From positions 1 through 41,253 of the forward strand of contig JBEGQU010000023.1 in NCBI GenBank assembly GCA_041180765.1: a stretch of DNA of 41,253 nucleotides, written 5' to 3'. Positions 2,858-25,600 of the stretch are shown one piece after another. Each line of letters opens with the position of its first letter. Positions within the stretch are counted from its first letter, which is position 1. The position numbers and the translations under genes are program-made. The notes beneath the pieces are model-generated. The model ran no database searches and had not been told where the DNA came from. It saw only the letters and a list, made by a program, of their open reading frames with translations. The DNA is from Chloroflexota bacterium. Lineage in GTDB: Bacteria > Chloroflexota > Limnocylindria > Limnocylindrales > Limnocylindraceae.

Positions 2858-6486
<3,629 letters not shown>

Positions 6487-6497
<11 letters not shown>

Positions 6498-7368
6498 GGG
6501 TGAGCAGCCTTCCGCCCGAGCGCCCGATCCGCTCGATGTAGCCGAGTGCGTGGCGCGAGAGGATGCCGAAGACGACGACCATCGCGGCGAGGATCGCCAG
6601 CTCGACGGGGACGGGGAGCAGGCCGCTCGCCGCGAGCTGCGGGACCGCGATCTGGCGCAGGGCGTCGGCCGCGGGGGCGAGCGGCAGGATCCCGATCGCC
6701 ACGAGCCCGATCGGGCCGAGGTTGCGGATCGGGGCGAAGAGGCCGCCGAGCAGCTGCATCGGCTCGTTCAGGAGATCGCCGAGGTGGTCGGCCTGACGGC
6801 CCGAGACGAGGAAGAAGGCGGCGAGGCAGGCGCCGAGCGCGTACATCGCGGCGACGCCGAGGAGCAGGGTGACGAGGAGCAGGAGCGGTTCCCCGACGCT
6901 GTACTGCGCCCCGAAGAGGAGGAGGCCCGCGGTGATGACGATCGCGGCGCGGATCGCCATGCCGACCGCTCCGCCGATCGCCATGCCGAGGGTGATCGCG
7001 CCGAGTCCGACCGGAGCGGTGATGTAGAGGGTGAGGTTGCCGCTGTCGCGCTCCCAGCGGAACTGCCCCGCCATCATCCAGATGACCGAGGTCCAGAAAG
7101 TGAGCAGGGCGCTGGCGAGGATCGTCGCGCTGATCCACGCCTCGTCGGCACCGCGCGAGCGCAGCAGGAAGACGAAGGCGGCCATGCCGAGGATGGGGAA
7201 TACCAGGTCGAAGAAGAGCCACGACGGCTCGCGGAGCATGCCGAAGATGCGCGGGTAGGCCCGCCCGGCGACGGACTGCGCGGCGTGCCGGAGCCGGTGC
7301 CCGGCGCTCCACTCGGTCGCGGCGCGGATGCGCACCGCCAGGTCGTCCGGCGCCGCGGCGCGGCTCAC
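6487..7368 (-). CDS. ABC-2-type transporter permease (first of two)
   Basis: Polytopic membrane protein. Start set at GTG 7368, overlapping the ATPase stop (GTGA); the track start at 7908 lies inside the ATPase gene. Confidence 0.7.
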
Positions 7369-8408
7369 CCCGCCGGCTCCGCTTCGGATTCGCCGATGCC
7401 GCGCCCGACGAGCTGCACGAACACCTCTTCGAGGGTCGGCTCGCTCTTCGCGATCTCGCGCAGGTGCGCTCCCGCACCGGCGAGCGAGCTGATCACTCCG
7501 CCGAGCGCGCCGTCCTCGCGCAGGCCGATCGCGAGGCGGGTGATCGGCGAGCCGATGCCGCTGGCGCCGTCGTCGTCGACGCCGCGCACCGCGACCGAGA
7601 GGACGCCGGGGAGGGCGCGGAGCGTGGCCGGGGTCACCCCCGCGGGCAGGTCGTCGACGCCGACGATGAACAGCGCCTCGCGCTGGACCATGCGCTTCAG
7701 CTCGGCGGGGGTCCCCTGGGCGAGGATCCGGCCGTGATCCACGATCGCAATGCGGTCGCACATCTCGTCGGCCTCGGCCATGTAGTGCGTGGTGAGGAGC
7801 ACGGTCCTGCCGGGTTCCGCCTCCTGGAAGGCGCGCACGCGCTCGCGCACGTCGCGCGCCGCGGCGACATCGAGGCCGATCGTCGGCTCGTCGAGGAAGA
7901 GGATCCACGGGTCGTTGAGGAACGAGCGCGCGAAGTTCAGCTTCTGGCGCTGCCCGGTCGACAGGGCGCTGATCTTGCGGTCGGCGATCTCGCGGATGCC
8001 GAAGGCGTCGATCTGCTCGTCGACGCGGCGCATCCCCTCGCGATAGGGCATGCCGTAGAACTGCGCGAACATGGCGAGCTGCTCGCGCACGGTGAGGAGC
8101 CCGTAGCCCGAGAAGTCGCCGCCGGCCACGAGGTTCATGATGCGGCGCACGCGCTCCGTCTCGGCGACGACGTCGAGTCCGAAGATCGAGGCGCCCCCCG
8201 TCGTGGGGAGCAGGAGCGTGCTCAGGATCTTGATCAGCGTGCTCTTCCCCGCGCCGTTCGGGCCGAGGAGTCCGAAGAGCTCGCCCGGCTCGATGCGCAG
8301 GTCGATGCCGTGCAACGCGGTGACCGGGCCGCCCTTCGCCTGGAAGACCCGTCCGACGCCGCGCGCCTCGACGGCGGCGACGCTCGTGCGGGAGGGATTC
8401 GTCGTCAT
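7365..8408 (-). CDS. ABC transporter ATP-binding protein (DrrA/ABC-2 exporter type, with C-terminal extension)
   Basis: Walker [10 protein letters not shown], signature LSTGQRQKL, Walker [14 protein letters not shown]-loop TTHYM. ATG 8408 is preceded by GGAGG. Confidence 0.85.
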
Positions 8409-16517: not shown

Positions 16518-17299
16518 GCGGCGAGCGCGTTTGCATCCTGGCCGACGCGCCGGCCCTCGCCGAGGCGGCGGCGGAGCTGGTGGTGGCGAGCGCCTGCGCC
16601 GCGGTGGAGGCGCGCGGCCGCTTCGACCTCTGCACCACCGGGGGTTCTACCCCCGCAGCGCTCTACGCCGCCCTTCGCATGCCGGAACGCTCGTCGCGCA
16701 TGCCGTGGCAGGCGACGCATGTCTGGTTCGGCGACGATCGCCTGGTGCCGCGGCACGACACGCGGTCGAACCTCGCCCCGGTCGATGCCGTGCTCCTGGC
16801 CCCCGGTCCCGACGGCAGTCCGTCGCCGATGCCGGCGGACGCGGTGCACCCCTGGCCGACCGGTGCCGACTCGGGTGACCGCGCCGTTGCCGGCTACCTC
16901 GCCGAGCTCTCCGGCTCCGGCCTGATCGGCGCCGCAGGCAGCCAGCCGGTCTTCGATCTCGTGCTCCTCGGCGTCGGCGGCGACGGGCACTGCCTGAGCG
17001 TCTTCCCCGGTTCGCCGCTCGCGCAGGCGGACGCCCCGGTCGCCGCCGCCGTCCCGGCCCCGACGCACATCGAGCCCCACGTGGCGCGACTCTCCTTCTC
17101 GCTCGGGGTGCTCCGCAGCGCCAGGTCGGTCTGCGTCCTCGCACCCGGCGCAGCGAAAGCCGAGATCCTGGCGAGGGTGCTCGACGGCGGCGTCGACCTG
17201 GCAGGCGGCATCGGTGAGCTCCCGGCGCGCGCGGCCCGCATCGCCACGGCGACCTGGCTCCTCGACCGGGAGTCGGCCGCCCGCATCACGGCACGCTGA
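16514..17299 (+). CDS. pgl: 6-phosphogluconolactonase
   Basis: ..LCTTGGSTPAALY.., ..HVWFGDDR.., ..FDLVLLGVGGDGHCLSVFPGSP... The ATG overlaps the opcA stop (ATGA). Confidence 0.85.
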   Translation: MSGERVCILADAPALAEAAAELVVASACAAVEARGRFDLCTTGGSTPAALYAALRMPERSSRMPWQATHVWFGDDRLVPRHDTRSNLAPVDAVLLAPGPDGSPSPMPADAVHPWPTGADSGDRAVAGYLAELSGSGLIGAAGSQPVFDLVLLGVGGDGHCLSVFPGSPLAQADAPVAAAVPAPTHIEPHVARLSFSLGVLRSARSVCVLAPGAAKAEILARVLDGGVDLAGGIGELPARAARIATATWLLDRESAARITAR

Positions 17300-18038
17300 T
17301 CCCCCACTTCGCGCCGAGGGCGCGCGTCGCCGCCTGGCGCTCGGTTGCGGTCAAGATCCTGTTCCAGGCGAGCGCCTCCATGATGCCGCCGGTGAAGCGC
17401 CGCTGGCCGCCCGCCAGCGCGATCCCGCCGAGCAGGTCGACGGTCGACGTCGGCGTCGCCGTGAACAGCGCATCGAAGCCGTTGTTGATCGTCGCGGAGT
17501 CATAGCCCGTCGTGTAGAAGCGAACGGTGAGGATCCTGTCGCCGGCGAGCGTGCCGAGCAGCGGCGACACGGCGCTCGTGCCGCTGTACCAACAGCGGAT
17601 CCGCCCCTCCTCGACGGCGAACCCCTCGGCCGCGGCGGAAGAGCCCAGGAGCGGGTAGGTCCCGGTCGCCGCCGGGAAGCGCAGCACCGCGATGAAGGTG
17701 AGCGGCTCGATGCGGATCGGCGCGGGGAGCGCGAGCAGGGCATCGCTCATGGCCACCTGCGCCCGTCCCGCCAGCGCGGTGGCATACGGCGGACTCCCGG
17801 CGGCGCTCGGGCGCGCACCGCGGCCGGCGACCGCCTTGTCGAACCAGAAGCGCAGGTGCGGCGCAAGCCCCATGGTCGCCGGCTCGGCCGCGTCGTACCA
17901 GAAGAGCAGCCCGCTCGCGACGTTGCCCGGGGCGGACCAGGCGCCGCTCGCGATCGGCAACTCGACGGGTGCGGTCCACCGGGCCCCCGCCGTGGCGAGC
18001 GCGACCACGGCGGCGAGGAGCAGGGCGCGCCGCCTCAC
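17286..18038 (-). CDS. Secreted LamG/concanavalin-A-like lectin-fold protein (accessory gene of the TasA-like module)
   Basis: GTG 18038 overlaps the peptidase stop (GTGA). Sec-type signal VRRRALLLAAVVALATAGA. The C-terminus ..RFTGGIMEALAWNRILTATERQA.. resembles the end of a Laminin_G_3 domain. The track ORF up to 18656 is an out-of-gene extension. Confidence 0.6.
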   Translation of the reverse strand: MRRRALLLAAVVALATAGARWTAPVELPIASGAWSAPGNVASGLLFWYDAAEPATMGLAPHLRFWFDKAVAGRGARPSAAGSPPYATALAGRAQVAMSDALLALPAPIRIEPLTFIAVLRFPAATGTYPLLGSSAAAEGFAVEEGRIRCWYSGTSAVSPLLGTLAGDRILTVRFYTTGYDSATINNGFDALFTATPTSTVDLLGGIALAGGQRRFTGGIMEALAWNRILTATERQAATRALGAKWGISVP

Positions 18039-18898
18039 GGGCCCCAGAGGAGCGGCAGGGTGAGCGACGCCGCCTGGGCATCGAGCGCCCCGAGGAGGGT
18101 GGCGCGAAGCTCGCAGCGGGTCGCTGTGGCCAGGCCCGGCACGAGCAGCCCCGTCGACGGGAGCGCGGCGCTCCACTCTGCGGTGAAGAGATCTCCCGCC
18201 TCGCGCCATGCGGCCCCGTCCGGATCCTGGCAGCGCGCCGCAAGGCGCAGTGCACGGGCAAGGCCGGGGGCCCCGGCGAGCGGCGAGAACCTGTCCGGGT
18301 CGATCCGGAGCGACTGGGATGGGCCGCACAACGACCCCGAGGTGGCTGAGCAGGGGCGGAGGAGCAGGCTCCAGGTGGCCGTCGCGCCGGGGAGCAGCTC
18401 CCCGGCAGCGCTGCCGCCGGAGATCGACACCCCTTCGAGCGCGACCGACGCGCCGGCGGCCGCCGCGACCGAGAGGGAGAGGCTGCGCTGTGCGGCGAAT
18501 GTCGCCGTGGTCCACGCCGTGAACCGGCGCAGCACGGCTGCCAGCGGCGGGATCGCCGAGAGGGGGATCACCGCGACGAGTCGCCCGCGAACATCCGCGT
18601 CGGTGAAACGCTCGGCGTCGACCGACCGGCTGGCGTCTCCGCGCAGCAGGCGCCACCCCGCACCGTGCTCGACCACGCGGTGCAGCAGCAGCGTCTGGTC
18701 GGGATCATGGCGGGCGACGAGCAGGATGCTCCCCCGCTGCGCATCGATCGCCGTCGCGGCGACCGTGACGGCAACGTCCCCCGAGCGGAGGCTCGGTGCC
18801 ATCGACTCGCCGACGACGAGCACGATGCGCAGGCCCAGCCCCGCCGCCGCGAGCGCGGCCACGATCACGATGCCGATCGAGAGACTCCGTCTGCGCAC
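18035..18898 (-). CDS. SipW/ER-type signal peptidase I (S26B) fused to a C-terminal TasA-like domain
   Basis: N-terminal TM helix, then GESMAPSL (Ser box), LLLHRVVE (His box) and RGDASRSVD (GDxx..D box), which is the Ser/His ER-type pattern. Residues from about 130 to 287 begin TTATFAAQRSLS..AGASVALEG.. and resemble the neighbouring TasA-like protein. The GTG start shares 1 nt with the upstream stop (TAGTG). Confidence 0.7.
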   Translation of the reverse strand: MRRRSLSIGIVIVAALAAAGLGLRIVLVVGESMAPSLRSGDVAVTVAATAIDAQRGSILLVARHDPDQTLLLHRVVEHGAGWRLLRGDASRSVDAERFTDADVRGRLVAVIPLSAIPPLAAVLRRFTAWTTATFAAQRSLSLSVAAAAGASVALEGVSISGGSAAGELLPGATATWSLLLRPCSATSGSLCGPSQSLRIDPDRFSPLAGAPGLARALRLAARCQDPDGAAWREAGDLFTAEWSAALPSTGLLVPGLATATRCELRATLLGALDAQAASLTLPLLWGP

Positions 18899-19518
18899 TA
18901 CGCGGTGATGTTGCGCGCCTCGAAGAGGAGCGTCAGGGACACCGACGATCCCGCCCCGCTGGTCGCAGACGCAGGGAGCGAGAGCTCGAACACGTAGCGT
19001 GCGGAGGCCGCCGTGGCCCCCGAAGAGCCCGAGCCGTTGATGGAGCGCCAGGTCGTGCCGATCGGCGCCGTGAAGCGGTCGAGGCCAGCGAGCGCGGCGA
19101 CGGTGCCGTCGTACAGGACGGTGCTGGTCCCACCGCCGACCGAGCGCGTGATGCGCAGGCGGAGCACCGCCGCGAGGCTATCGCTTGCGAGCGGGGTGCT
19201 GCCGAGGCTCGCGTAGAGGGCGATCTCCGTCTGGTTCGTCGGCACGGTCACCGTCGACTGGTTCAGGACGGTCAGGGTCTGGCTGAAGCTGGCCCCGGGC
19301 CCGATCGCCGCAAGGTCCGCGCCACTGAACTCGAGGCGCTGCAGGCCACCGGTATCGAGCGCCACCGTCCCCGCGCTCGCCGCGGCAGAGAGTGGCCGGA
19401 TGTCGGAGAAGGCGGCGGTGGTCCGACCGACCGTGGCGCCGCCGGCGAAGATGACCCCCGCCGCCGCCAGCAGGCGGACCGCCCGGCGAGTGCCCGATCG
19501 TGAAACGCTCTTGCCCAT
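18898..19518 (-). CDS. TasA/camelysin-like secreted protein with a SipW-cognate-type signal peptide
   Basis: MGKSVSRSGTRRAVRLLAAAGVIFAGGATVGRTTAAFSD.. (basic n-region, hydrophobic core, TxAxFSD motif), then ..AGTVALD.., ..IGPGASFSQTLTVLNQS.., ..LTLLFEARN... AGGAGA lies upstream of ATG 19518. Confidence 0.65.
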   Translation of the reverse strand: MGKSVSRSGTRRAVRLLAAAGVIFAGGATVGRTTAAFSDIRPLSAAASAGTVALDTGGLQRLEFSGADLAAIGPGASFSQTLTVLNQSTVTVPTNQTEIALYASLGSTPLASDSLAAVLRLRITRSVGGGTSTVLYDGTVAALAGLDRFTAPIGTTWRSINGSGSSGATAASARYVFELSLPASATSGAGSSVSLTLLFEARNITA

Positions 19519-19591
19519 GTCGCTCTCCTGGCGGGGGCGGCAAGCGATCCTCTCGTGCGCGGCGTACTCCCGACGTACCGGGCGCGGGAGG

Positions 19592-20725
19592 CTAGTACTG
19601 CGGGAGCGGGACCTCCTCCGGCACCCAGTCGCTGCCGACCAGGTCGATATCGGGCGGCCAGTGTGCGCTGGCCAGCGCGTAGATCGCTTGATCGACATAG
19701 GCGCTCACGGGGTCGAGGCTGATGACGATCCCCACCGCCTGGGCATCGGAACCCGTCACCTCGACGGCCGCTTCGTCGATCGCGAAGAGGCCAGGGCCGG
19801 CACTTGGCCAGAGGGAACCATTCCACTGGTTGAGGGCCCAGGCGATCGTCCCCTCATCGAACTCCGAGAGCCCCGCCTCCAGATAGCGGGCGCTGCACCC
19901 CTGGAGATCGTCGCGACATCCGACCGTGGTTGCGGCGAGCGCGACGAGCGCTGCGGCTGCGGCGATCTGCCCGTCCTCGGATGCGATCGAGGCGGCGCTG
20001 GCCCAGAGGCCGAGTCCTCCGGCGCGGCCGCCGGTCATCGGCAGCCAGGTGAAGCTGTCCGCCCCGTAGGCAACGCCGTTCTCGTCGGCCGACTGGAGAA
20101 TGCGCGGCAGGCCGTCGGACGAGCGCGTGTACACCGCGTCAAACGTCCCGTCAGCGAGCATCGCCGGATCGAACGGCACCGCGGTGTCGGTCGAGTAGGT
20201 CAGCACGATGTCTCCGGTGTCGATCCCGGCCCCCTGCAGCGTGGCACGGAGGGCGTGCTCGTCGCCGGGGAAGCCGTCGACATAGATGTTCGAGCCCGCG
20301 AGGCTATTGAGCGATGTCCGGGTGCGCGAAACGACCCCCCAAGAGGTCAAGTGCTCAAGCGACGCGACGTAGACAAGGTCGGCGCCCTGCTCCCTGGCGC
20401 GGAGGGCGGTTGCTGTGTCGAGGGCGTAAAGGTCGACGACATCGGTACGACCTGAGGGGGTGAAGGCGCCGTCGGGACTGCCGAGCGGGATCGCGCTCAC
20501 GGTGACCTTGTTGGCCGCGAGGAGGCCGAGCTGCGAGATCGCCGCGAACGGGGCGAACATCGCCCCGGCTGAGCCCGGAAGCCGGATGGCTACGGTCATC
20601 GCCGACTTCGGTACAAGGTCGGCCACGATCGACGAGGGGGTCGGGGTCGGCGAGGGACCGAGCGCCGGACGGCAGGCCGATGCGACCACGAGCAACGAGA
20701 TCGCGACGGCGAGGCGTCGAATCAT
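19592..20725 (-). CDS. Lipoprotein, NMT1/THI5-like (NitT/TauT-type) periplasmic substrate-binding protein, with no cognate permease nearby
   Basis: Lipobox LLVVASAC. Type-2 binding-protein pattern (..[11 protein letters not shown].., ..C.DDLQGC.., ..[22 protein letters not shown]..). ATG 20725 overlaps the pstB stop (ATGA). Confidence 0.6.
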
Positions 20726-21534
20726 CCGAAGCGGCCCGCAACGTAGTCTTCGGTGAGGCGCTGCTCCGGAGCAGTAAACATCTTCGGCGTCGGACCGCTC
20801 TCCACGAGGTATCCCGCACGATCTTCGCCCATGGTCATGAAGGCCGTCGTATCGGAGACGCGAGATGCCTGCTGCATGTTGTGGGTCACGATGACGATCG
20901 TGTACTCCTCGCGGAGAGTGCGGATGAGCTCTTCGATCTTCAGCGTGGCGATCGGGTCCAGTGCCGAGCATGGCTCATCCATGAGGATGATCTCGGGCTT
21001 CACGGCGATCGCCCGCGCGATGCACAACCGCTGCTGCTGGCCGCCGGAGAGCGAGGTACCTGGCTGATTGAGCTTGTCCTTGACCTCGTCCCAGAGGGCG
21101 GCCTTGCGCAGCGAGTCCTCGACGATCGCGGCGAGCGCTGCCTTGTTCGTCTGCCCCGCGAGCCGCAACCCGCTCACGACATTCTGGGCAATCGACATCG
21201 TCGGGAACGGATTCGGCTTCTGGAACACCATGCCGATCGACCGGCGCACGCGCACCGGATCGATCTGGGGGTCGTAGATATCCACCCCCTCGATCTCGAT
21301 CGTCCCCTCGACGCGAGCACCCGTCGTCGTCTCGTGCATCCGGTTGATCGTGCGGATCAGCGTGGACTTGCCGCAGCCCGAGGGGCCGATGAGCGCGGTG
21401 ACCGACTGCGCCGCCACCTCGAGGGAAACGTCCTTCACCGCGCGGAAGCTGCCGTAGTAGGCGCTGAGGCTCTTGAGGCTCAGTGCGGTCGCGGAGCCCT
21501 TCGCGGGCTTCTCGGTACGGCTCTTGGCAGACAT
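20722..21534 (-). CDS. pstB: Phosphate ABC transporter ATP-binding protein
   Basis: ..[16 protein letters not shown].., [51 protein letters not shown] lies upstream. Confidence 0.95.
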
Positions 21535-21559
21535 GCTCCCTCCTATCCTCTTCGCGATG

Positions 21560-22426
21560 CTAGGCGATGCGCGAGTTGACCGTCTTGAAGCGAACCGCCA
21601 CGTTCAGCACGAGGGCGATCGCGAAGAGCACCAGCGCCGTCGTCCAGGCCTCGGCAACCATCTGCGGGTCGGACGAACCGGCGTTGTTGTAGATCACGAT
21701 CGGCATCGCGCTCATCGGCGCACCGAGGTTGATCGCCTCGTCGTTCGAGCCGAGGGCGGTCATGAGCAGCGGTGCCGTCTCGCCGAGGCCGCGGCTGATC
21801 GCGAGCACGACGCCAGTGAGGATCCCCGAGAAGGCAGTGCGCCCAACGATGAAGACCGACGTCTTCCACGAGGAGACGCCGAGGGCGAGTGATGCCTCGC
21901 GCAGCCCCGCCGGGACGAGGCGCATCACCTCCTGGGTGGTGCGCATCACCACGGGGATCATCAAGACAGAGAGCGCGATCGTCGCGGACCACCCGGAGAA
22001 GCCGAGCAGGGGGACGATCGCGAGGTAGGCGAAGAGCCCGGCGAGGATGCTCGGAACGCCGAGCATGACGTCGATGAGATATTCGCCGAGCGCCGTGACC
22101 CGGGGCGAGGCGTATTCGTTGAGGTAGACGCCGCCGGCGATCCCGATGGGTGCGGAGATGAGCGTGGCGACGAAGGTCATTGCCAGCGACCCCTGGATGG
22201 CGTTGACGATCCCGGGCGGACTGCCGAGCGGCCCGTTGAAGAGGAACTCGGGCGTCAGCCGGCCCACCCCGTTGCTGACGATGAGCACGGTGATCCCGAC
22301 GAGCGGGAGGATCGCCAGCGCGGTGGTGGCAGCGATCACCAGGCGCATCATCCGATTGAGCCTGCGGCGTCGCAGGTCGCGCGCGGAGAGCGCGAAGGGA
22401 TGGCTCGCGCCGACGCGCCCGCTCAC
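21560..22426 (-). CDS. pstA: Phosphate ABC transporter permease PstA
   Basis: ..REASLALG.., ..[10 protein letters not shown]... GTG 22426 overlaps the pstC stop (GTGA). The track start at 22954 is inside pstC. Confidence 0.9.
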
Positions 22427-23412
22427 CTGCCCCTCCCCGCCCCGCCGTTCGCTCGGCGAATGAGCACCCGGACACAGAGGCTGAGCACGAAGGTCACAGC
22501 GAAGAGGGCGAGCCCCAGCCCGGCGAGGGCACCACGCTCGACGGCTAGGTCGGCTTCGCCAATGTTGCCCGCAATCTTCGCGGCGACGGAGCTCCCCGAC
22601 TGGAAGAGGCTCGAGGGGACCGCCGAATCGGCCATGCCGATCACGAGGCGGACGGCGATCGTCTCGCCGATCGCCCGCCCGAATGCCAGCAGCACGGCCC
22701 CGATCAGTCCGATCCGAGCGGTCGGCAGGACGACGGCGCGGATCGTCTCCCACTCTGTGGCCCCCATGCCGATATAGCCCTCGCGCAGGGACTGCGGCAC
22801 CGATCGGATCACCTCGCGACCCACCGCGACGACCATCGGCGTGATCATGATCGCGAGAACGATTCCGGCACGAAAGACCGTGGTTGACGACGGTGCCTCG
22901 GGATTCTCTGAGAGCCAGGGGATCACGTGGCCGAGGGTGCTTGCGATCCACCACTCGACTGAGTCGCGGAGGCGCGGGGAGAGGTCGCCGAGCGCCCAGA
23001 GACCGATGACGACCGACGGGATCGCCGCGACGATCTCGACGAGGAAGGTGAGGGGGGCCGCAAGCCGGCGGGGTGCGAACTCCACGAGGTAGACCGCGGC
23101 GAGGATCCCGACGGGAGCGGCGACGAGGATGCCGATGAGCGAGGTGACGAGCGTCCCCCAGATCATCGGCCAGGCGCCGTACTGAACCTTGGTCACACCG
23201 GCCTCGTCGACCGACACGCCGTTCCAGCCGCTGCCGAAGAGGAAATCAAGCGGCTTGACGGCGCCCCAGAGCGGGGTTGAGAAGTTCGCGATGGTGTAGA
23301 TAACGGCGACAAGGAGCAGAGCTGCGGCGGCGACCGCCGCGGCGAGCGCCCAGCGGAAGAATCCGTCGGCCGTGATTCGGCTGCGTACCCGGAGGCGGGT
23401 GCTCAGTGCCAC
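22423..23412 (-). CDS. pstC: Phosphate ABC transporter permease PstC
   Basis: ..REGYIGMGATEWETI.., ..GRAIGETIAV... The GTG start is preceded by GAGGGGAGAG. Confidence 0.9.
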   Translation of the reverse strand: MALSTRLRVRSRITADGFFRWALAAAVAAAALLLVAVIYTIANFSTPLWGAVKPLDFLFGSGWNGVSVDEAGVTKVQYGAWPMIWGTLVTSLIGILVAAPVGILAAVYLVEFAPRRLAAPLTFLVEIVAAIPSVVIGLWALGDLSPRLRDSVEWWIASTLGHVIPWLSENPEAPSSTTVFRAGIVLAIMITPMVVAVGREVIRSVPQSLREGYIGMGATEWETIRAVVLPTARIGLIGAVLLAFGRAIGETIAVRLVIGMADSAVPSSLFQSGSSVAAKIAGNIGEADLAVERGALAGLGLALFAVTFVLSLCVRVLIRRANGGAGRGR

Positions 23413-23463
23413 GTCTCTCCCCTCTCAGCGCCCTGTGCTGCGTGCAGTGTAGTCAACGAGCGA

Positions 23464-23500
23464 ATCGGCGGGGTGCCCTGACCCAGGGCACCCCGCCGAT
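23464..23500 (-). terminator. Strong intercistronic hairpin between pstS and pstC (partial terminator or mRNA stabiliser)
   Basis: ATCGGCGGGGTGCCCTG-ACC-CAGGGCACCCCGCCGAT, a perfect 17-bp stem with a 3-nt loop, 27 nt after the pstS stop. There is no clear U-tract. Confidence 0.5.
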
Positions 23501-23526
23501 CGGTCTGTGCGTGCGCGAAGCCGGAT

Positions 23527-24861
23527 CTACGGCCAGACCTTCGCGTTGTCGTACTTCACCAGCTTCAGCTCCGTGAGCACGCGAGCCTTGACGCTGCTCG
23601 GGAGCGGTGCGAAGCACGGCACGCCCGAAGCCGTGTACACCGCCCCGCTGGTCAGCGACCAGTGGAGGAAGTAGACGAGGCCCTTCACCTGCCCGAGCGT
23701 GGGCGCGTTCGTTACCGTCGACTCGTAGTTCTTGTACACGAGCAACCACGAGAACCCGACGATCGGGTACGTGTAGAGGCCCGACTGCAGGACCGGCTGG
23801 AAGAAGGTGAGTGCCGGGTTCACCGGGTCATTCTCTGCCTTCGCCGCAGCCGTCTTGGCCGCCGCAAGGGTTCGAGCCTGGCGCTCGACGGCGTTCGTCG
23901 CACCCGACTGCGTCGGGGCGAGGTAGGCCGGCTTCCCCTTGTTCGCACCGGAGGTGTACTTCGTTGCCGTCGCGATCTTCGCCGTCTTCACGTCTGCCGC
24001 AAAGCTATAGGCCATCTCGACGTAGCCGATCGTGCCATCGGTCGCGGAGACATAGTTCCTGATGCCGTCATTGCCGGTCTTCGACTGAATCGCCGCTGCA
24101 CCCTTTGCGGTTCGCATCGCGCTGAAACGCGTCGCCATGATCGCATCGGCCGGCTTGATCGTGCCGGAGTGCGCAGTGAACGTCGTGTCCGCGTTGTCCC
24201 AGCCGCTGTGGTAGCTGCAGTTGCGCTGTGCGCTCGAGGCGCCCTTCGCCAGGTAGCTGGCAAAGATGAACGTCGTGCCCGAGGTCGCGTCGCGTGCGAC
24301 CGGGACGATCGTCGTGCTGACGCTCGAGAGGCCTGGGTTGAGCGCGACGATCTTCGCGTCGTTCCAGGCCGTGATATCGCCGGCATAGATGCCGCAGATG
24401 ATCTCGGCGTTGAGGAGAATCTGCTTGCTGTAGCCCGAGACGTGCGTGATCACCGCGACCGGTGCAGCCGTCATCGGCACGACGATGTAGCCGCCCGGGA
24501 TCGCGGCGGCGGAGGTCCGCTGCGCCGCATCGAGGAGGCTGTCGCTGCCCGAGAACATCCAGGTGCCGCGGGCGTTGGCGCCGTAGAAGTTGGCCTTCCC
24601 CGTTCCGGAGCTCGACTTGGTGTAGGTGAGCACGAGCTTCGTGCTCGAATCGCTACCGAAGTTCGCCGACTTGGCGGCGGTGATGTCGGTGATCCACTTC
24701 TGATACTGGTCGTTCGGGAACGAGGCGCCGCCGCCGGCGATCGCGCCCTTCGATCCCGAGGGGATCGTCGGCGACGCCGCTGCGCTCGCACCGCCCGCGA
24801 GGCCGCCCGCGAGCACGAGACCCGCGAGGGCTCCTGTAAGGATCCTCATGAACTTGTTCAC
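23527..24861 (-). CDS. pstS: Phosphate-binding protein PstS (long form, about 444 aa)
   Basis: Signal peptide, then ..GGGASFPNDQYQKWI.., ..ATSGTT... Start set at GTG 24861, 5 nt after GGAGGAGG. Confidence 0.85.
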   Translation of the reverse strand: MNKFMRILTGALAGLVLAGGLAGGASAAASPTIPSGSKGAIAGGGASFPNDQYQKWITDITAAKSANFGSDSSTKLVLTYTKSSSGTGKANFYGANARGTWMFSGSDSLLDAAQRTSAAAIPGGYIVVPMTAAPVAVITHVSGYSKQILLNAEIICGIYAGDITAWNDAKIVALNPGLSSVSTTIVPVARDATSGTTFIFASYLAKGASSAQRNCSYHSGWDNADTTFTAHSGTIKPADAIMATRFSAMRTAKGAAAIQSKTGNDGIRNYVSATDGTIGYVEMAYSFAADVKTAKIATATKYTSGANKGKPAYLAPTQSGATNAVERQARTLAAAKTAAAKAENDPVNPALTFFQPVLQSGLYTYPIVGFSWLLVYKNYESTVTNAPTLGQVKGLVYFLHWSLTSGAVYTASGVPCFAPLPSSVKARVLTELKLVKYDNAKVWP

Positions 24862-24922
24862 GTGTTCCTCCTCCGTCGCGGTGCGCGGCCGCATCACTCT
24901 TGCGCACCCCTACCCTCTCGCC

Positions 24923-24966
24923 CGAAGGTTTCTGGGGGGTCAACCCCGTGTTATCGCCAGGTAAAC
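24923..24966 (-). promoter_or_regulatory. Four 11-nt-phased direct repeats resembling actinobacterial PHO boxes upstream of pstS
   Basis: The complement reads GTTTACCTGGC GATAACACGGG GTTGACCCCCC AGAAACCTTCG. Units 1 and 3 match 6 of 7 positions of the GTTCACC core; units 2 and 4 are weaker. The array ends 61 nt upstream of the pstS GTG. Confidence 0.4.
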
Positions 24967-24992
24967 GGCCTCGGCCAGGGGGGCAAATCGGC

Positions 24993-24998
24993 TACGAT
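24993..24998 (+). promoter_or_regulatory. -10-like TACGAT placed for a leaderless tdk transcript
   Basis: TACGAT is followed by 7 nt and then ATG 25006. There is no Shine-Dalgarno sequence upstream of tdk. Confidence 0.3.
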
Positions 24999-25005
24999 CG
25001 CGCGC

Positions 25006-25590
25006 ATGGCCGCCCAGCGTCGCCCCTGGCTCCACGTCATCGCCGGCTGCATGAGCAGCGGCAAGACCGCCGAGGTCGTGCGGCTGCTCACCCGCCGCCA
25101 GATCGCCGGGCAGAGCGTCCTCCTGATCACCCCCGCCCGCGACACCCGCATCGCGCCGGGCGAGGTGGTGAGCCGCACCGGGACCCGCTTCCCGAGCGTC
25201 GTGGCGGCCGACGTCGCCGCCGTGCTCGCCGAGGTGGCCCGCCACGACCCGGACGCGGTGGCGATCGAGGAGGCGCAGTTCTTCGGACCCGACCTCCCTG
25301 CGGCGATCGAGGCGATGGTCGCGGCACCGCGCACGGTGATCGTCAGCGGGCTCGACCAGGACTTCGCCGGGCGCCCCTTCGCCACGATCCCCGAGCTCCT
25401 CGCACGCGCCGACGAGGTGACGAAGCTGTCGGCGATCTGCGTCGTCTGCGGCAGCGAGGCGACGCGAACGCAGCGGCTGCGCAACGGCGTGCCGGCGCGC
25501 GCCGACGACGAGCTCATCGTGATCGGCGGCATGGCGGGAGACGAGACCTACGAGGCGCGCTGCCGCGCCTGCCACGTCGTCCCCGCCTGA
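25006..25590 (+). CDS. tdk: Thymidine kinase
   Basis: ..VIAGCMSSGKT.., ..AIEEAQFF.., ..SGLDQDFAGRPF.., and a zinc ribbon C..C....C..C (ICVVCGSEA...CRAC). Confidence 0.9.
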   Translation: MAAQRRPWLHVIAGCMSSGKTAEVVRLLTRRQIAGQSVLLITPARDTRIAPGEVVSRTGTRFPSVVAADVAAVLAEVARHDPDAVAIEEAQFFGPDLPAAIEAMVAAPRTVIVSGLDQDFAGRPFATIPELLARADEVTKLSAICVVCGSEATRTQRLRNGVPARADDELIVIGGMAGDETYEARCRACHVVPA

Positions 25591-25600
25591 CACGACGACC

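Follow-up and report, generated by a model that had tools for sequence, protein, structure and literature searches.

What kind of system is encoded by three tightly joined minus-strand genes in the genome of a Chloroflexota bacterium, and do these genes supply a fibre to the cell surface? The genes, here termed G1, G2 and G3, are located on contig JBEGQU010000023.1, of which a stretch of 41,253 nucleotides (nt) was analysed (termed the window). A preliminary description, made from the nt sequence alone, read them as a TasA-like subunit, a signal peptidase and a lectin-like secreted protein, and proposed an undescribed fibre or adhesion system. The trio is a new, lineage-specific and uncharacterised variant, and the preliminary description is largely right as to its parts and its kind. 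The reading favoured here, with fair confidence, is that the trio forms one translationally coupled unit, a minimal extracellular filament or matrix system of the TasA superfamily in the Limnocylindria. That the three proteins work together is held with good confidence.

The stop codon of G1 and the start codon of G2 have one base in common (TAGTG), and G2 and G3 overlap by 4 nt (GTGA). These junctions, already described from the sequence, are confirmed by its rereading and are conserved in relatives. Very few homologues exist: word-indexed searches of 5.8 billion proteins yielded six matches for G1, nine for G2 and three for G3, and an exhaustive HMMER search of 1.84 billion representatives with a G1 profile yielded only 26 matches at E ≤ 1e-3. 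When a single genome of each GTDB species was scanned for motifs of the G2 C-terminal domain, 16 loci were obtained. All 16 are in metagenome-assembled genomes (MAGs) of Chloroflexota, class Ca. Limnocylindria, mostly Ca. Limnocylindrus or Ca. Aquidulcis; with all relatives in this class, the actinobacterial host assumed at first has to be abandoned.

Synteny was counted in the 18 of 20 loci where all three genes are complete, the other two being cut by contig ends. A tblastn search with extraction of open reading frames shows the order G1-G2-G3 in all 18, with chain lengths of 204–206, 281–287 and 250–255 amino acids (aa), respectively. The junctions are overlaps of 1 or 4 nt, or the genes lie a few nt apart, and pgl is found convergent and downstream of the trio in complete related loci. 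Across the 16 species genomes, orthologues share 38%–56% aa identity, and chain lengths, catalytic residues and gene junctions are conserved; the nearest copies, on metagenome contigs, display 98%–99% identity. The expected co-occurrence of the three genes in relatives is therefore present both in the 16 species genomes and on metagenome contigs.

The gene upstream of the trio varies among loci. At a locus termed L027, with 98% identity in G2, G1 is directly flanked by genes for thymidine kinase and ornithine decarboxylase in place of the pst block. In the window (positions 19592–25600) a block of about 5.4 kb, consisting of a lipoprotein-like open reading frame and pstB, pstA, pstC and pstS, is situated between G1 and those genes. 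As read from the sequences, this difference of about 5.4 kb reflects a recent, local rearrangement just upstream of the trio. As the upstream neighbour is variable even in L027, the trio itself is the conserved unit. Genomes of the Ca. Limnocylindrus family are reported to be reduced, about 1.3 Mb, and the families of Limnocylindria have GC contents of 63%–68.6% (PMC13212565), below the approximately 72% of the window. The trio is present in Ca. Limnocylindrus MAGs, and the fact that genomes streamlined to about 1.3 Mb have kept it points to a function under selection. A literature search found no published mention of a G1-G2-G3 module.

The assignment of G1 to TasA/camelysin proteins, made in the preliminary description, holds at the superfamily level and fails with the direct family models. 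Searches of Pfam and NCBIfam with G1 show no PF12389 match at E ≤ 1 and no TIGR04088 match, and the TasA model NF046066 gives E = 0.47 (9.8 bits, at the N-terminus only), below the family threshold. Among 19 members of the G1 family, PF12389 matches two (best E = 0.22), NF046066 matches three (best E = 0.0095) and TIGR04088 matches one (E = 7.8). A search of PDB sequences with the G1 profile shows no relevant match. The connection appears through more distant homologues: matches of the G1 profile of about 200 aa (P0032–P0040) pass the PF12389 gathering score and also match TIGR04088. An hhalign comparison of the 19 G1-family sequences with eight distant PF12389-passing sequences gives a probability of 99.8% and E = 2.8e-28 over 187 columns, and was reproduced locally. 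A hidden Markov model (HMM) of those eight proteins scores 77.6 bits on G1 and finds TasA (8AUR and 5OF1) at E of about 2e-5; it should be noted that the intermediates in this comparison were chosen via the G1 profile.

The sequence motifs quoted in the preliminary description are present in G1 (TTAAFSD, AGTVALD, PGASF..LTVLNQS and LTLLFEARN) and in G2 (GESMAPS, LLHRV and GDAS). Three landmarks of G1 can be aligned with TasA: SAGTVALD with FASGTLDLS, IGPGASFSQTLTVLNQS with NLKPGDKLTKDFQFENNGS, and LTLLFEARN with IKLQFSFEATQ. The AlphaFold2 (AF2) model of G1 has a predicted local distance difference test score (pLDDT) of 67.7 and a predicted template modelling score (pTM) of 0.68. A Foldseek search of the PDB with this model places TasA 5OF1 first (E = 9.3e-5, probability 1.00, template modelling score 0.41, 191 columns), in agreement with the jelly-roll fold proposed earlier. 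Structure 5OF2 ranks fourth, and the other structures after 5OF1 are generic viral jelly-rolls and PliG. The structural agreement of the modelled G1 with the TasA jelly-roll can be termed moderate.

The N-terminus of G1 displays a basic n-region and a hydrophobic core (hydropathy maximum at residues 13–30), followed by GRTTAAFSDIRPL. Residues 31–40, GRTTAAFSDI, form the best-conserved decapeptide of the protein (0.92 compared with a mean of 0.75), and an A-x-[FW]-[ST] motif is present at residue 35 in all 19 family members. This conservation of the cleavage block, unlike that of ordinary signal peptides, matches the SipW-type pattern. G1 carries the pattern T-x-A|A-F-[ST]-D, and its signal segment aligns with the TIGR04088-matching segment of the distant homologues. 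For a SipW-cognate signal peptide, as first suggested, the evidence is divided: the pattern and the conserved block agree with it, and TIGR04088 itself gives no match to G1.

TasA is cut by SipW at TWA|AFNDIKSK, after which residues 28–38 of the mature protein (AFNDIKSKDAT) complete the next subunit as its donor strand (PMC9674648). From this equivalence, cleavage of G1 is predicted between A35 and A36, and we infer that residues 36–48 would act as the donor strand. Residues 10–12 of the window G1 (positions 19483–19491) lie within a twin-arginine-like sequence, T-R-R-A-V-R-L. Some haloarchaeal TasA-like pili depend on the twin-arginine translocation (Tat) pathway. Tat export of G1 was considered and rejected: most orthologues have R-H at this site and the twin arginine is not conserved.

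G2 was described as a Ser/His signal peptidase of the endoplasmic reticulum (ER) type, and this description is well supported. The window G2 matches TIGR02228 with E = 5.8e-8 (32.8 bits; the equivalog cut-off of 51.85 is not reached), and all 17 orthologues match the same model (best E = 6.6e-13); seven of the 17 also match the Bacillus SipW model NF046067 (best E = 1.3e-6). The G2 family profile detects human SEC11A/SEC11C at E of about 2e-4, and the G2 motifs GeSMaP, LLHRV and kGDAs..D align with SGSMEP, IVHRV and KGDNN..DD of SEC11A/C. S32 (in GESMAP), H73 (in LLHRV), and D88 and D94 (in GDAS..D) are invariant in the 17 sequences, as in a Ser/His(/Asp) type enzyme and unlike the Ser/Lys dyad of bacterial peptidases. 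Foldseek places SEC11A/C (7p2p_A and 7p2q_A) first for the G2 model, with a probability of 1.00 and a target template modelling score (TMt) of 0.52–0.53, followed by SipA and SpsB. The identity of G1 as a member of the TasA/camelysin superfamily and that of the G2 N-terminal domain are both held with high confidence.

G2 is about 100–130 aa longer than a SipW-type peptidase, and its architecture is atypical when compared with catalytic-only peptidases of about 160–200 aa that, in SipW, have a C-terminal transmembrane segment. The additional length is a conserved C-terminal domain of about 160 aa with four cysteines, which the preliminary description had overlooked. Two of the cysteines, C223 and C262, are invariant and the other two, C183 and C191, nearly so; several tryptophans are conserved as well. 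The AF2 model (pLDDT 68 for the whole protein) shows about ten strands in the C-terminal part. Fold matches of this domain in Foldseek are weak and consist of beta-sandwiches of FimA, carbohydrate-binding module (CBM) and SUN proteins. Because the domain has no conserved transmembrane segment, it is predicted to be on the extracytoplasmic side, as is the active site. A second transmembrane segment at about residues 106–124 was rejected, there being charged residues at these positions in orthologues. The C-terminal domain was also considered as a TasA-like paralogue, which finds no support: hhalign comparisons with the G1 family, the PF12389-type proteins and G3 give E-values of 0.12–0.44, which are not significant. 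A donor-strand mimic in G2 (TTATFAAQRSLSLSV, to be compared with TTAAFSDIRPLSAAAS of G1) is likewise unsupported, because an HMM built from the cleavage and donor region of G1 scores no better on G2 than on shuffled sequences. The same HMM also performs no better on G3 than on shuffled sequences.

G3 has an N-terminal signal peptide (hydropathy maximum at residues 3–20) that ends with an invariant A19-x-W21-[ST]. In both G1 and G3, one A-x-[FW]-[ST] site and no other is fully conserved, and it is situated at the end of the signal peptide; G3 is probably also a substrate of G2, to judge from this motif. PF13385 (Laminin_G_3) matches 17 of 18 G3 orthologues, with a best E-value of 2e-6, and gives no match to the window G3. 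Four inspected matches score 15.7–25.3 bits, where the gathering score is 27.6, and cover profile positions of about 97–150 out of 151; the region of partial match corresponds to the motif E-x-x-x-W-x-R-x-L-[ST]-x-x-E. Sequence and profile searches of NCBIfam and the PDB show no relevant match to G3. The signal peptide agrees with the proposal of a Sec-secreted protein, and the LamG-like part of that proposal is less firm than first stated, the orthologue matches being sub-threshold and partial and the window copy having none. G3 is probably a beta-sandwich of the concanavalin/LamG-like type and is a candidate accessory, tip or adhesin component. Its C-terminal sequence LGAKWGISVP (residues 241–250, positions 17289–17318) is the most conserved segment of the trio, with a mean top-residue frequency of 0.96, and this suggests an interaction or sorting motif. 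The positions of the features are listed in Table 1.

Table 1. Coordinates of the G1-G2-G3 trio, its parts and its upstream neighbours in the window.
Feature	Positions	Strand	Description
G1	18898..19518	(-)	ATG 19518 to TAG 18898, 206 aa; putative fibre subunit, divergent jelly-roll precursor of the TasA/camelysin superfamily
G1 signal peptide, residues 1–35	19414..19518	(-)	Basic n-region, 15-residue hydrophobic core, c-region ending ...GRTTA
G1 predicted mature N-terminus, residues 36–48, AFSDIRPLSAAAS	19375..19413	(-)	Candidate donor strand
G2	18035..18898	(-)	GTG 18898 to TGA 18035, 287 aa
G2 N-terminal part, residues 1–115	18554..18898	(-)	Membrane anchor and signal peptidase I domain of the ER/archaeal (SipW/SEC11) type
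G2 catalytic residues	Ser32 18803–18805, His73 18680–18682, Asp88 18635–18637	(-)	Assigned by alignment
G2 C-terminal part, residues ~128–287	18038..18517	(-)	All-beta domain with four conserved cysteines
G3	17286..18038	(-)	GTG 18038 to TGA 17286, 250 aa; secreted
Upstream intergenic element	19519..19591	(-)	Conserved non-coding DNA before G1
377-aa open reading frame	19592–20725	(-)	Lipobox-like N-terminus; no Pfam match

The trio is bounded downstream, on the G3 side, by a convergent pentose-phosphate cluster (tkt, pgi, zwf, opcA and pgl). On opposite strands, pgl (plus) and G3 (minus) converge and share 14 nt at their 3′ ends (positions 17286–17299), and the same is observed at L027 and at another related locus, L001. 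An intrinsic-terminator scan detected no terminator between pgl and G3, and there is no space for one. On the G1 side there is a spacer of 73 nt, followed by the 377-aa lipoprotein-like open reading frame, which could not be annotated, and then by pstBACS. This open reading frame also adjoins pstB in many Limnocylindria loci, with 30%–40% identity, and may be an uncharacterised substrate-binding lipoprotein. HMMs of G1, the PF12389-type proteins, G2 and G3 match only the trio in the window, with no further copies. Scans for Rfam families, tRNAs, sigma-70 promoters and intrinsic terminators gave no matches.

The 73-nt spacer has conserved features of its own. In an alignment of 11 loci whose encoded proteins share no more than 45%–55% identity, the non-coding DNA before G1 contains invariant columns. 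A direct repeat, GTACG-N6-GTACG, is found at positions 19563–19578 (here GTACGTCGGGAGTACG), with a consensus of rTACs-N6-rTAyG across loci; it occurs once in the window, where 0.07 occurrences are expected. The element also contains an A.GAT box resembling a -10 sequence, CCGCC repeats, and a GGAG Shine-Dalgarno sequence at positions 19525–19528, 7–10 nt before the ATG of G1. A scan of this upstream region for the sigma-70 consensus gave no match. The conserved repeat and element could represent a promoter or operator of the trio.

How does the trio compare with known systems? In TasA fibres the N-terminus acts as a donor strand during assembly, and TapA contributes a strand that resembles it (PMC9674648, PMC10151520). 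The tapA-sipW-tasA operon of Bacillus subtilis (5OF1, 8AUR) has in common with the trio a secreted jelly-roll subunit with a signal end of the A|AF-x-D type, an adjacent Ser/His peptidase of the ER/archaeal type, one more secreted accessory protein and a start/stop overlap; in addition, the G1 model matches TasA best. The differences are as follows. The gene order is subunit-peptidase-accessory, compared with tapA-sipW-tasA in Bacillus. The accessory protein G3 is probably LamG-like, where the Bacillus accessory is TapA. At 287 aa, G2 includes about 160 aa of additional beta domain and lacks a C-terminal transmembrane segment. G1, unlike TasA, is so divergent that it stays below the thresholds of PF12389 and NF046066. 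The trio belongs to a member of the Chloroflexota (Limnocylindria), and there is no SinR-type regulator nearby, in contrast to B. subtilis.

The Bacillus cereus cluster sipW-calY1-(bc_1280)-calY2 and a Bacillota cluster termed L022, which contains two SipW-like genes and many PF12389 paralogues, also display a SipW-like peptidase next to PF12389 subunits of about 200 aa with an AAF[TS]D motif. Each of these clusters contains more than one TasA-like paralogue, and the peptidase is a plain one of about 190–200 aa, whereas the trio has a single subunit, a peptidase with a fused domain and an accessory that is not TasA-like.

TasA-superfamily loci often pair subunits with a signal peptidase I, with fusions of signal peptidase and accessory sequences, and with tip proteins of varied fold (bioRxiv 10.64898/2026.01.04.697558). 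The archaeal and bacterial filament loci for AbpA bundling pili, AbpX and Tafi (PMC9245690, PMC12337348, bioRxiv 10.64898/2026.01.04.697558) resemble the trio in being compact, in their jelly-roll subunit, in an often TIGR02228-type signal peptidase I, in accessory or tip proteins of variable fold and in fusions of peptidase and accessory. G1, however, has no cysteine pair. The AbpX-associated signal peptidase has about ten transmembrane helices and a reported fusion partner, DUF5305, while G2 has one transmembrane segment and an unrelated soluble beta domain, in which Pfam shows no DUF5305 match. An assignment of the trio to the AbpX type was rejected on these two grounds. PF12389 homologues are known to occur in Chloroflexota (PMC9245690). 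Given these published Chloroflexota homologues and loci with signal peptidase and accessory proteins, the trio is less unprecedented than first claimed (PMC9245690, bioRxiv 10.64898/2026.01.04.697558).

Two metagenomic loci provide further comparisons. L023 (contig k141_5069752, positions 6001–7667) consists of coupled genes for a TasA-like protein of 210 aa (weak PF12389 match), a SipW-like protein of 191 aa and a 152-aa protein, which is secreted, rich in proline and glutamate, and has a SipW-type signal end (WGAFRDD / WGAFRDDTHNPGN). It adjoins pgk-tpi-secG, a neighbourhood typical of actinobacteria. L026 (contig SRR32481248_1800247, positions 812–1843) encodes a SipW-like peptidase of 343 aa adjoining a TasA-like gene. 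In the C-terminus of this peptidase, a transmembrane hairpin with a basic loop is followed first by a SipW-type signal peptide (…SRAAFVGAEGNSGNTF; …AVSRAAFVGAEGNSGNTFQAS) and then by an fn3-like domain; judged from its sequence, it is a natural fusion with a substrate-like module. Both loci resemble the trio in that a TasA-like gene is immediately followed by a SipW-like gene. The third gene of L023 and the peptidase extension of L026 are unrelated in sequence to G3 and to the G2 C-terminal domain, and the extra domain of G2 directly follows the catalytic domain, where L026 has the transmembrane hairpin first. Within G2, an A-x-F-[ST] motif is present at residue 132 in seven of ten sequences. 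This motif, together with the L026 fusion, provides a weak lead that the G2 C-terminal domain may be a substrate-like or donor module.

These comparisons lead to the following proposed sequence of events. G1 would be exported by Sec and cut at …GRTTA|AFSD… by G2, a membrane-anchored, putatively dedicated Ser/His/Asp peptidase. The new N-terminus of G1, AFSDIRPL… (the equivalent of AFNDIKSK… in TasA), would insert into the jelly-roll of the next subunit, and a chain of such insertions would form a donor-strand-complemented fibre without a chaperone, as in TasA and the archaeal bundling pili. The chance that G1 does polymerise by strand donation is considered a little better than even. G3, with its A-x-W-[ST] signal end, would be a second substrate of G2 and a minor component of the fibre, acting either as an adhesin at the tip or, in the manner of TapA, as an initiator or anchor. 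The cysteine-containing beta domain of G2, located outside the membrane near the active site, would serve as an assembly platform or anchor. These specific roles of G3 and of the G2 C-terminal domain are put forward tentatively.

A more elaborate version sees in the trio a three-gene kit for an as yet unseen surface filament of Limnocylindria, among them the streamlined planktonic Limnocylindraceae, with peptidase and assembly factor in one polypeptide and with G3 as the tip adhesin; it is thought unlikely. In such a kit the G2 C-terminal domain could be freed by self-cleavage at the A-x-F-[ST] site, or it could act as a TapA-like or usher-like platform.

Several observations weigh against a filament system. 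G1 has no direct significant match to PF12389, NF046066 or TIGR04088, and its link to TasA is transitive and accompanied by a moderate fold match (template modelling score 0.41, pLDDT 67.7). Residues 1–48 of G1, which include the putative donor strand, have a pLDDT below 50 in the monomer model. With the HMM of the G1 cleavage and donor region, 524 of 1000 shuffled sequences reach the score of the window G2. The G2 C-terminal domain shows no sequence match in Pfam, NCBIfam or the PDB, and the LamG assignment of G3 is sub-threshold and partial. TapA/YqxM models of NCBIfam and Pfam match neither G2 nor G3, and the statement in the preliminary description that TapA is missing is thereby confirmed. 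Neither a cell-wall anchor (SLH or LPXTG) nor a regulator is present with the trio. In a class-level genomic study of Limnocylindria, neither TasA nor pili, adhesion or signal peptidase is mentioned, and many of the related genomes are planktonic freshwater MAGs.

The main rival explanation is a maturation module for surface or secreted proteins that do not polymerise; G1 and G3 would then be monomeric, binding glycans, particles or nutrients, and there would be no fibre. The inferred character of G1 polymerisation, the low confidence of the donor-strand region in the monomer model, and the position of G1 outside the PF12389 gathering threshold are all compatible with this. Moreover, a biofilm matrix is unexpected in relatives that are mostly planktonic freshwater MAGs, some of them of the family with genomes of about 1.3 Mb (PMC13212565), and the neighbours of the trio are housekeeping genes (the pst operon and pentose-phosphate genes), without matrix, extracellular polysaccharide (EPS) or regulator genes. 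However, the structurally characterised members of the TasA superfamily that the cited work covers (TasA, AbpA, AbpX, Tafi, threads and cannulae) all form donor-strand filaments (PMC9674648, PMC9245690, 10.64898/2026.01.04.697558), and the strongest conservation in G1 is found in the first mature residues, which fits a donor strand easily and a monomer hardly. A pair of non-polymerising surface proteins is therefore rated as rather unlikely.

In a second alternative, the centre of the system is G3: this LamG-like protein would be the effector (an adhesin, lectin or glycan-binding protein), G1 would be its stalk, scaffold or chaperone, and the G2 C-terminal domain would dock the C-terminus of G3. 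The extreme conservation of LGAKWGISVP, a G3 conserved as strictly as G1 and G2, and the tip or adhesin proteins of varied fold reported in TasA-superfamily loci (10.64898/2026.01.04.697558) would agree with such a role. The fold of G3 is nevertheless predicted from sub-threshold, partial Laminin_G_3 matches, and contacts of G3 with G2 or G1 are hypothetical. A central role of G3 is considered improbable; it is, moreover, compatible with a filament system and does not exclude it.

The chance that the trio is an artefact, i.e. chance open frames or pseudogenes, is negligible: high-GC DNA is rich in long spurious open reading frames, and several on the plus strand opposite G1–G3 are the usual artefacts of this kind, but the GC content at third codon positions in the called frames (0.90, 0.89 and 0.94 for G1, G2 and G3) is the coding signature expected of real genes at about 72% GC, and the conservation of lengths, catalytic residues and junctions among orthologues of 38%–56% identity in the 16 species genomes refutes this reading.

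A minimal filament or matrix system thus continues to be the favoured explanation of the trio. Experimental characterisation of TasA-type donor-strand fibres, a kind of system shared by bacteria and archaea, is limited to a few cases (TasA, AbpA, AbpX, Tafi and related ones). The module is a very small, clearly bounded and strictly conserved version in an uncultivated and abundant freshwater class, and its retention in Ca. Limnocylindrus implies an important surface function. With its G2 C-terminal domain and an accessory that is not TapA, the trio could help to separate the indispensable parts of the TasA pathway from those that can be exchanged. Should G1 not polymerise, the trio would show that a fibre cannot always be assumed from a TasA fold. 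If the three-gene kit is real, it would represent a new architecture of donor-strand assembly and would give molecular access to the attachment of abundant, 'free-living' freshwater Chloroflexota to particles or to one another.

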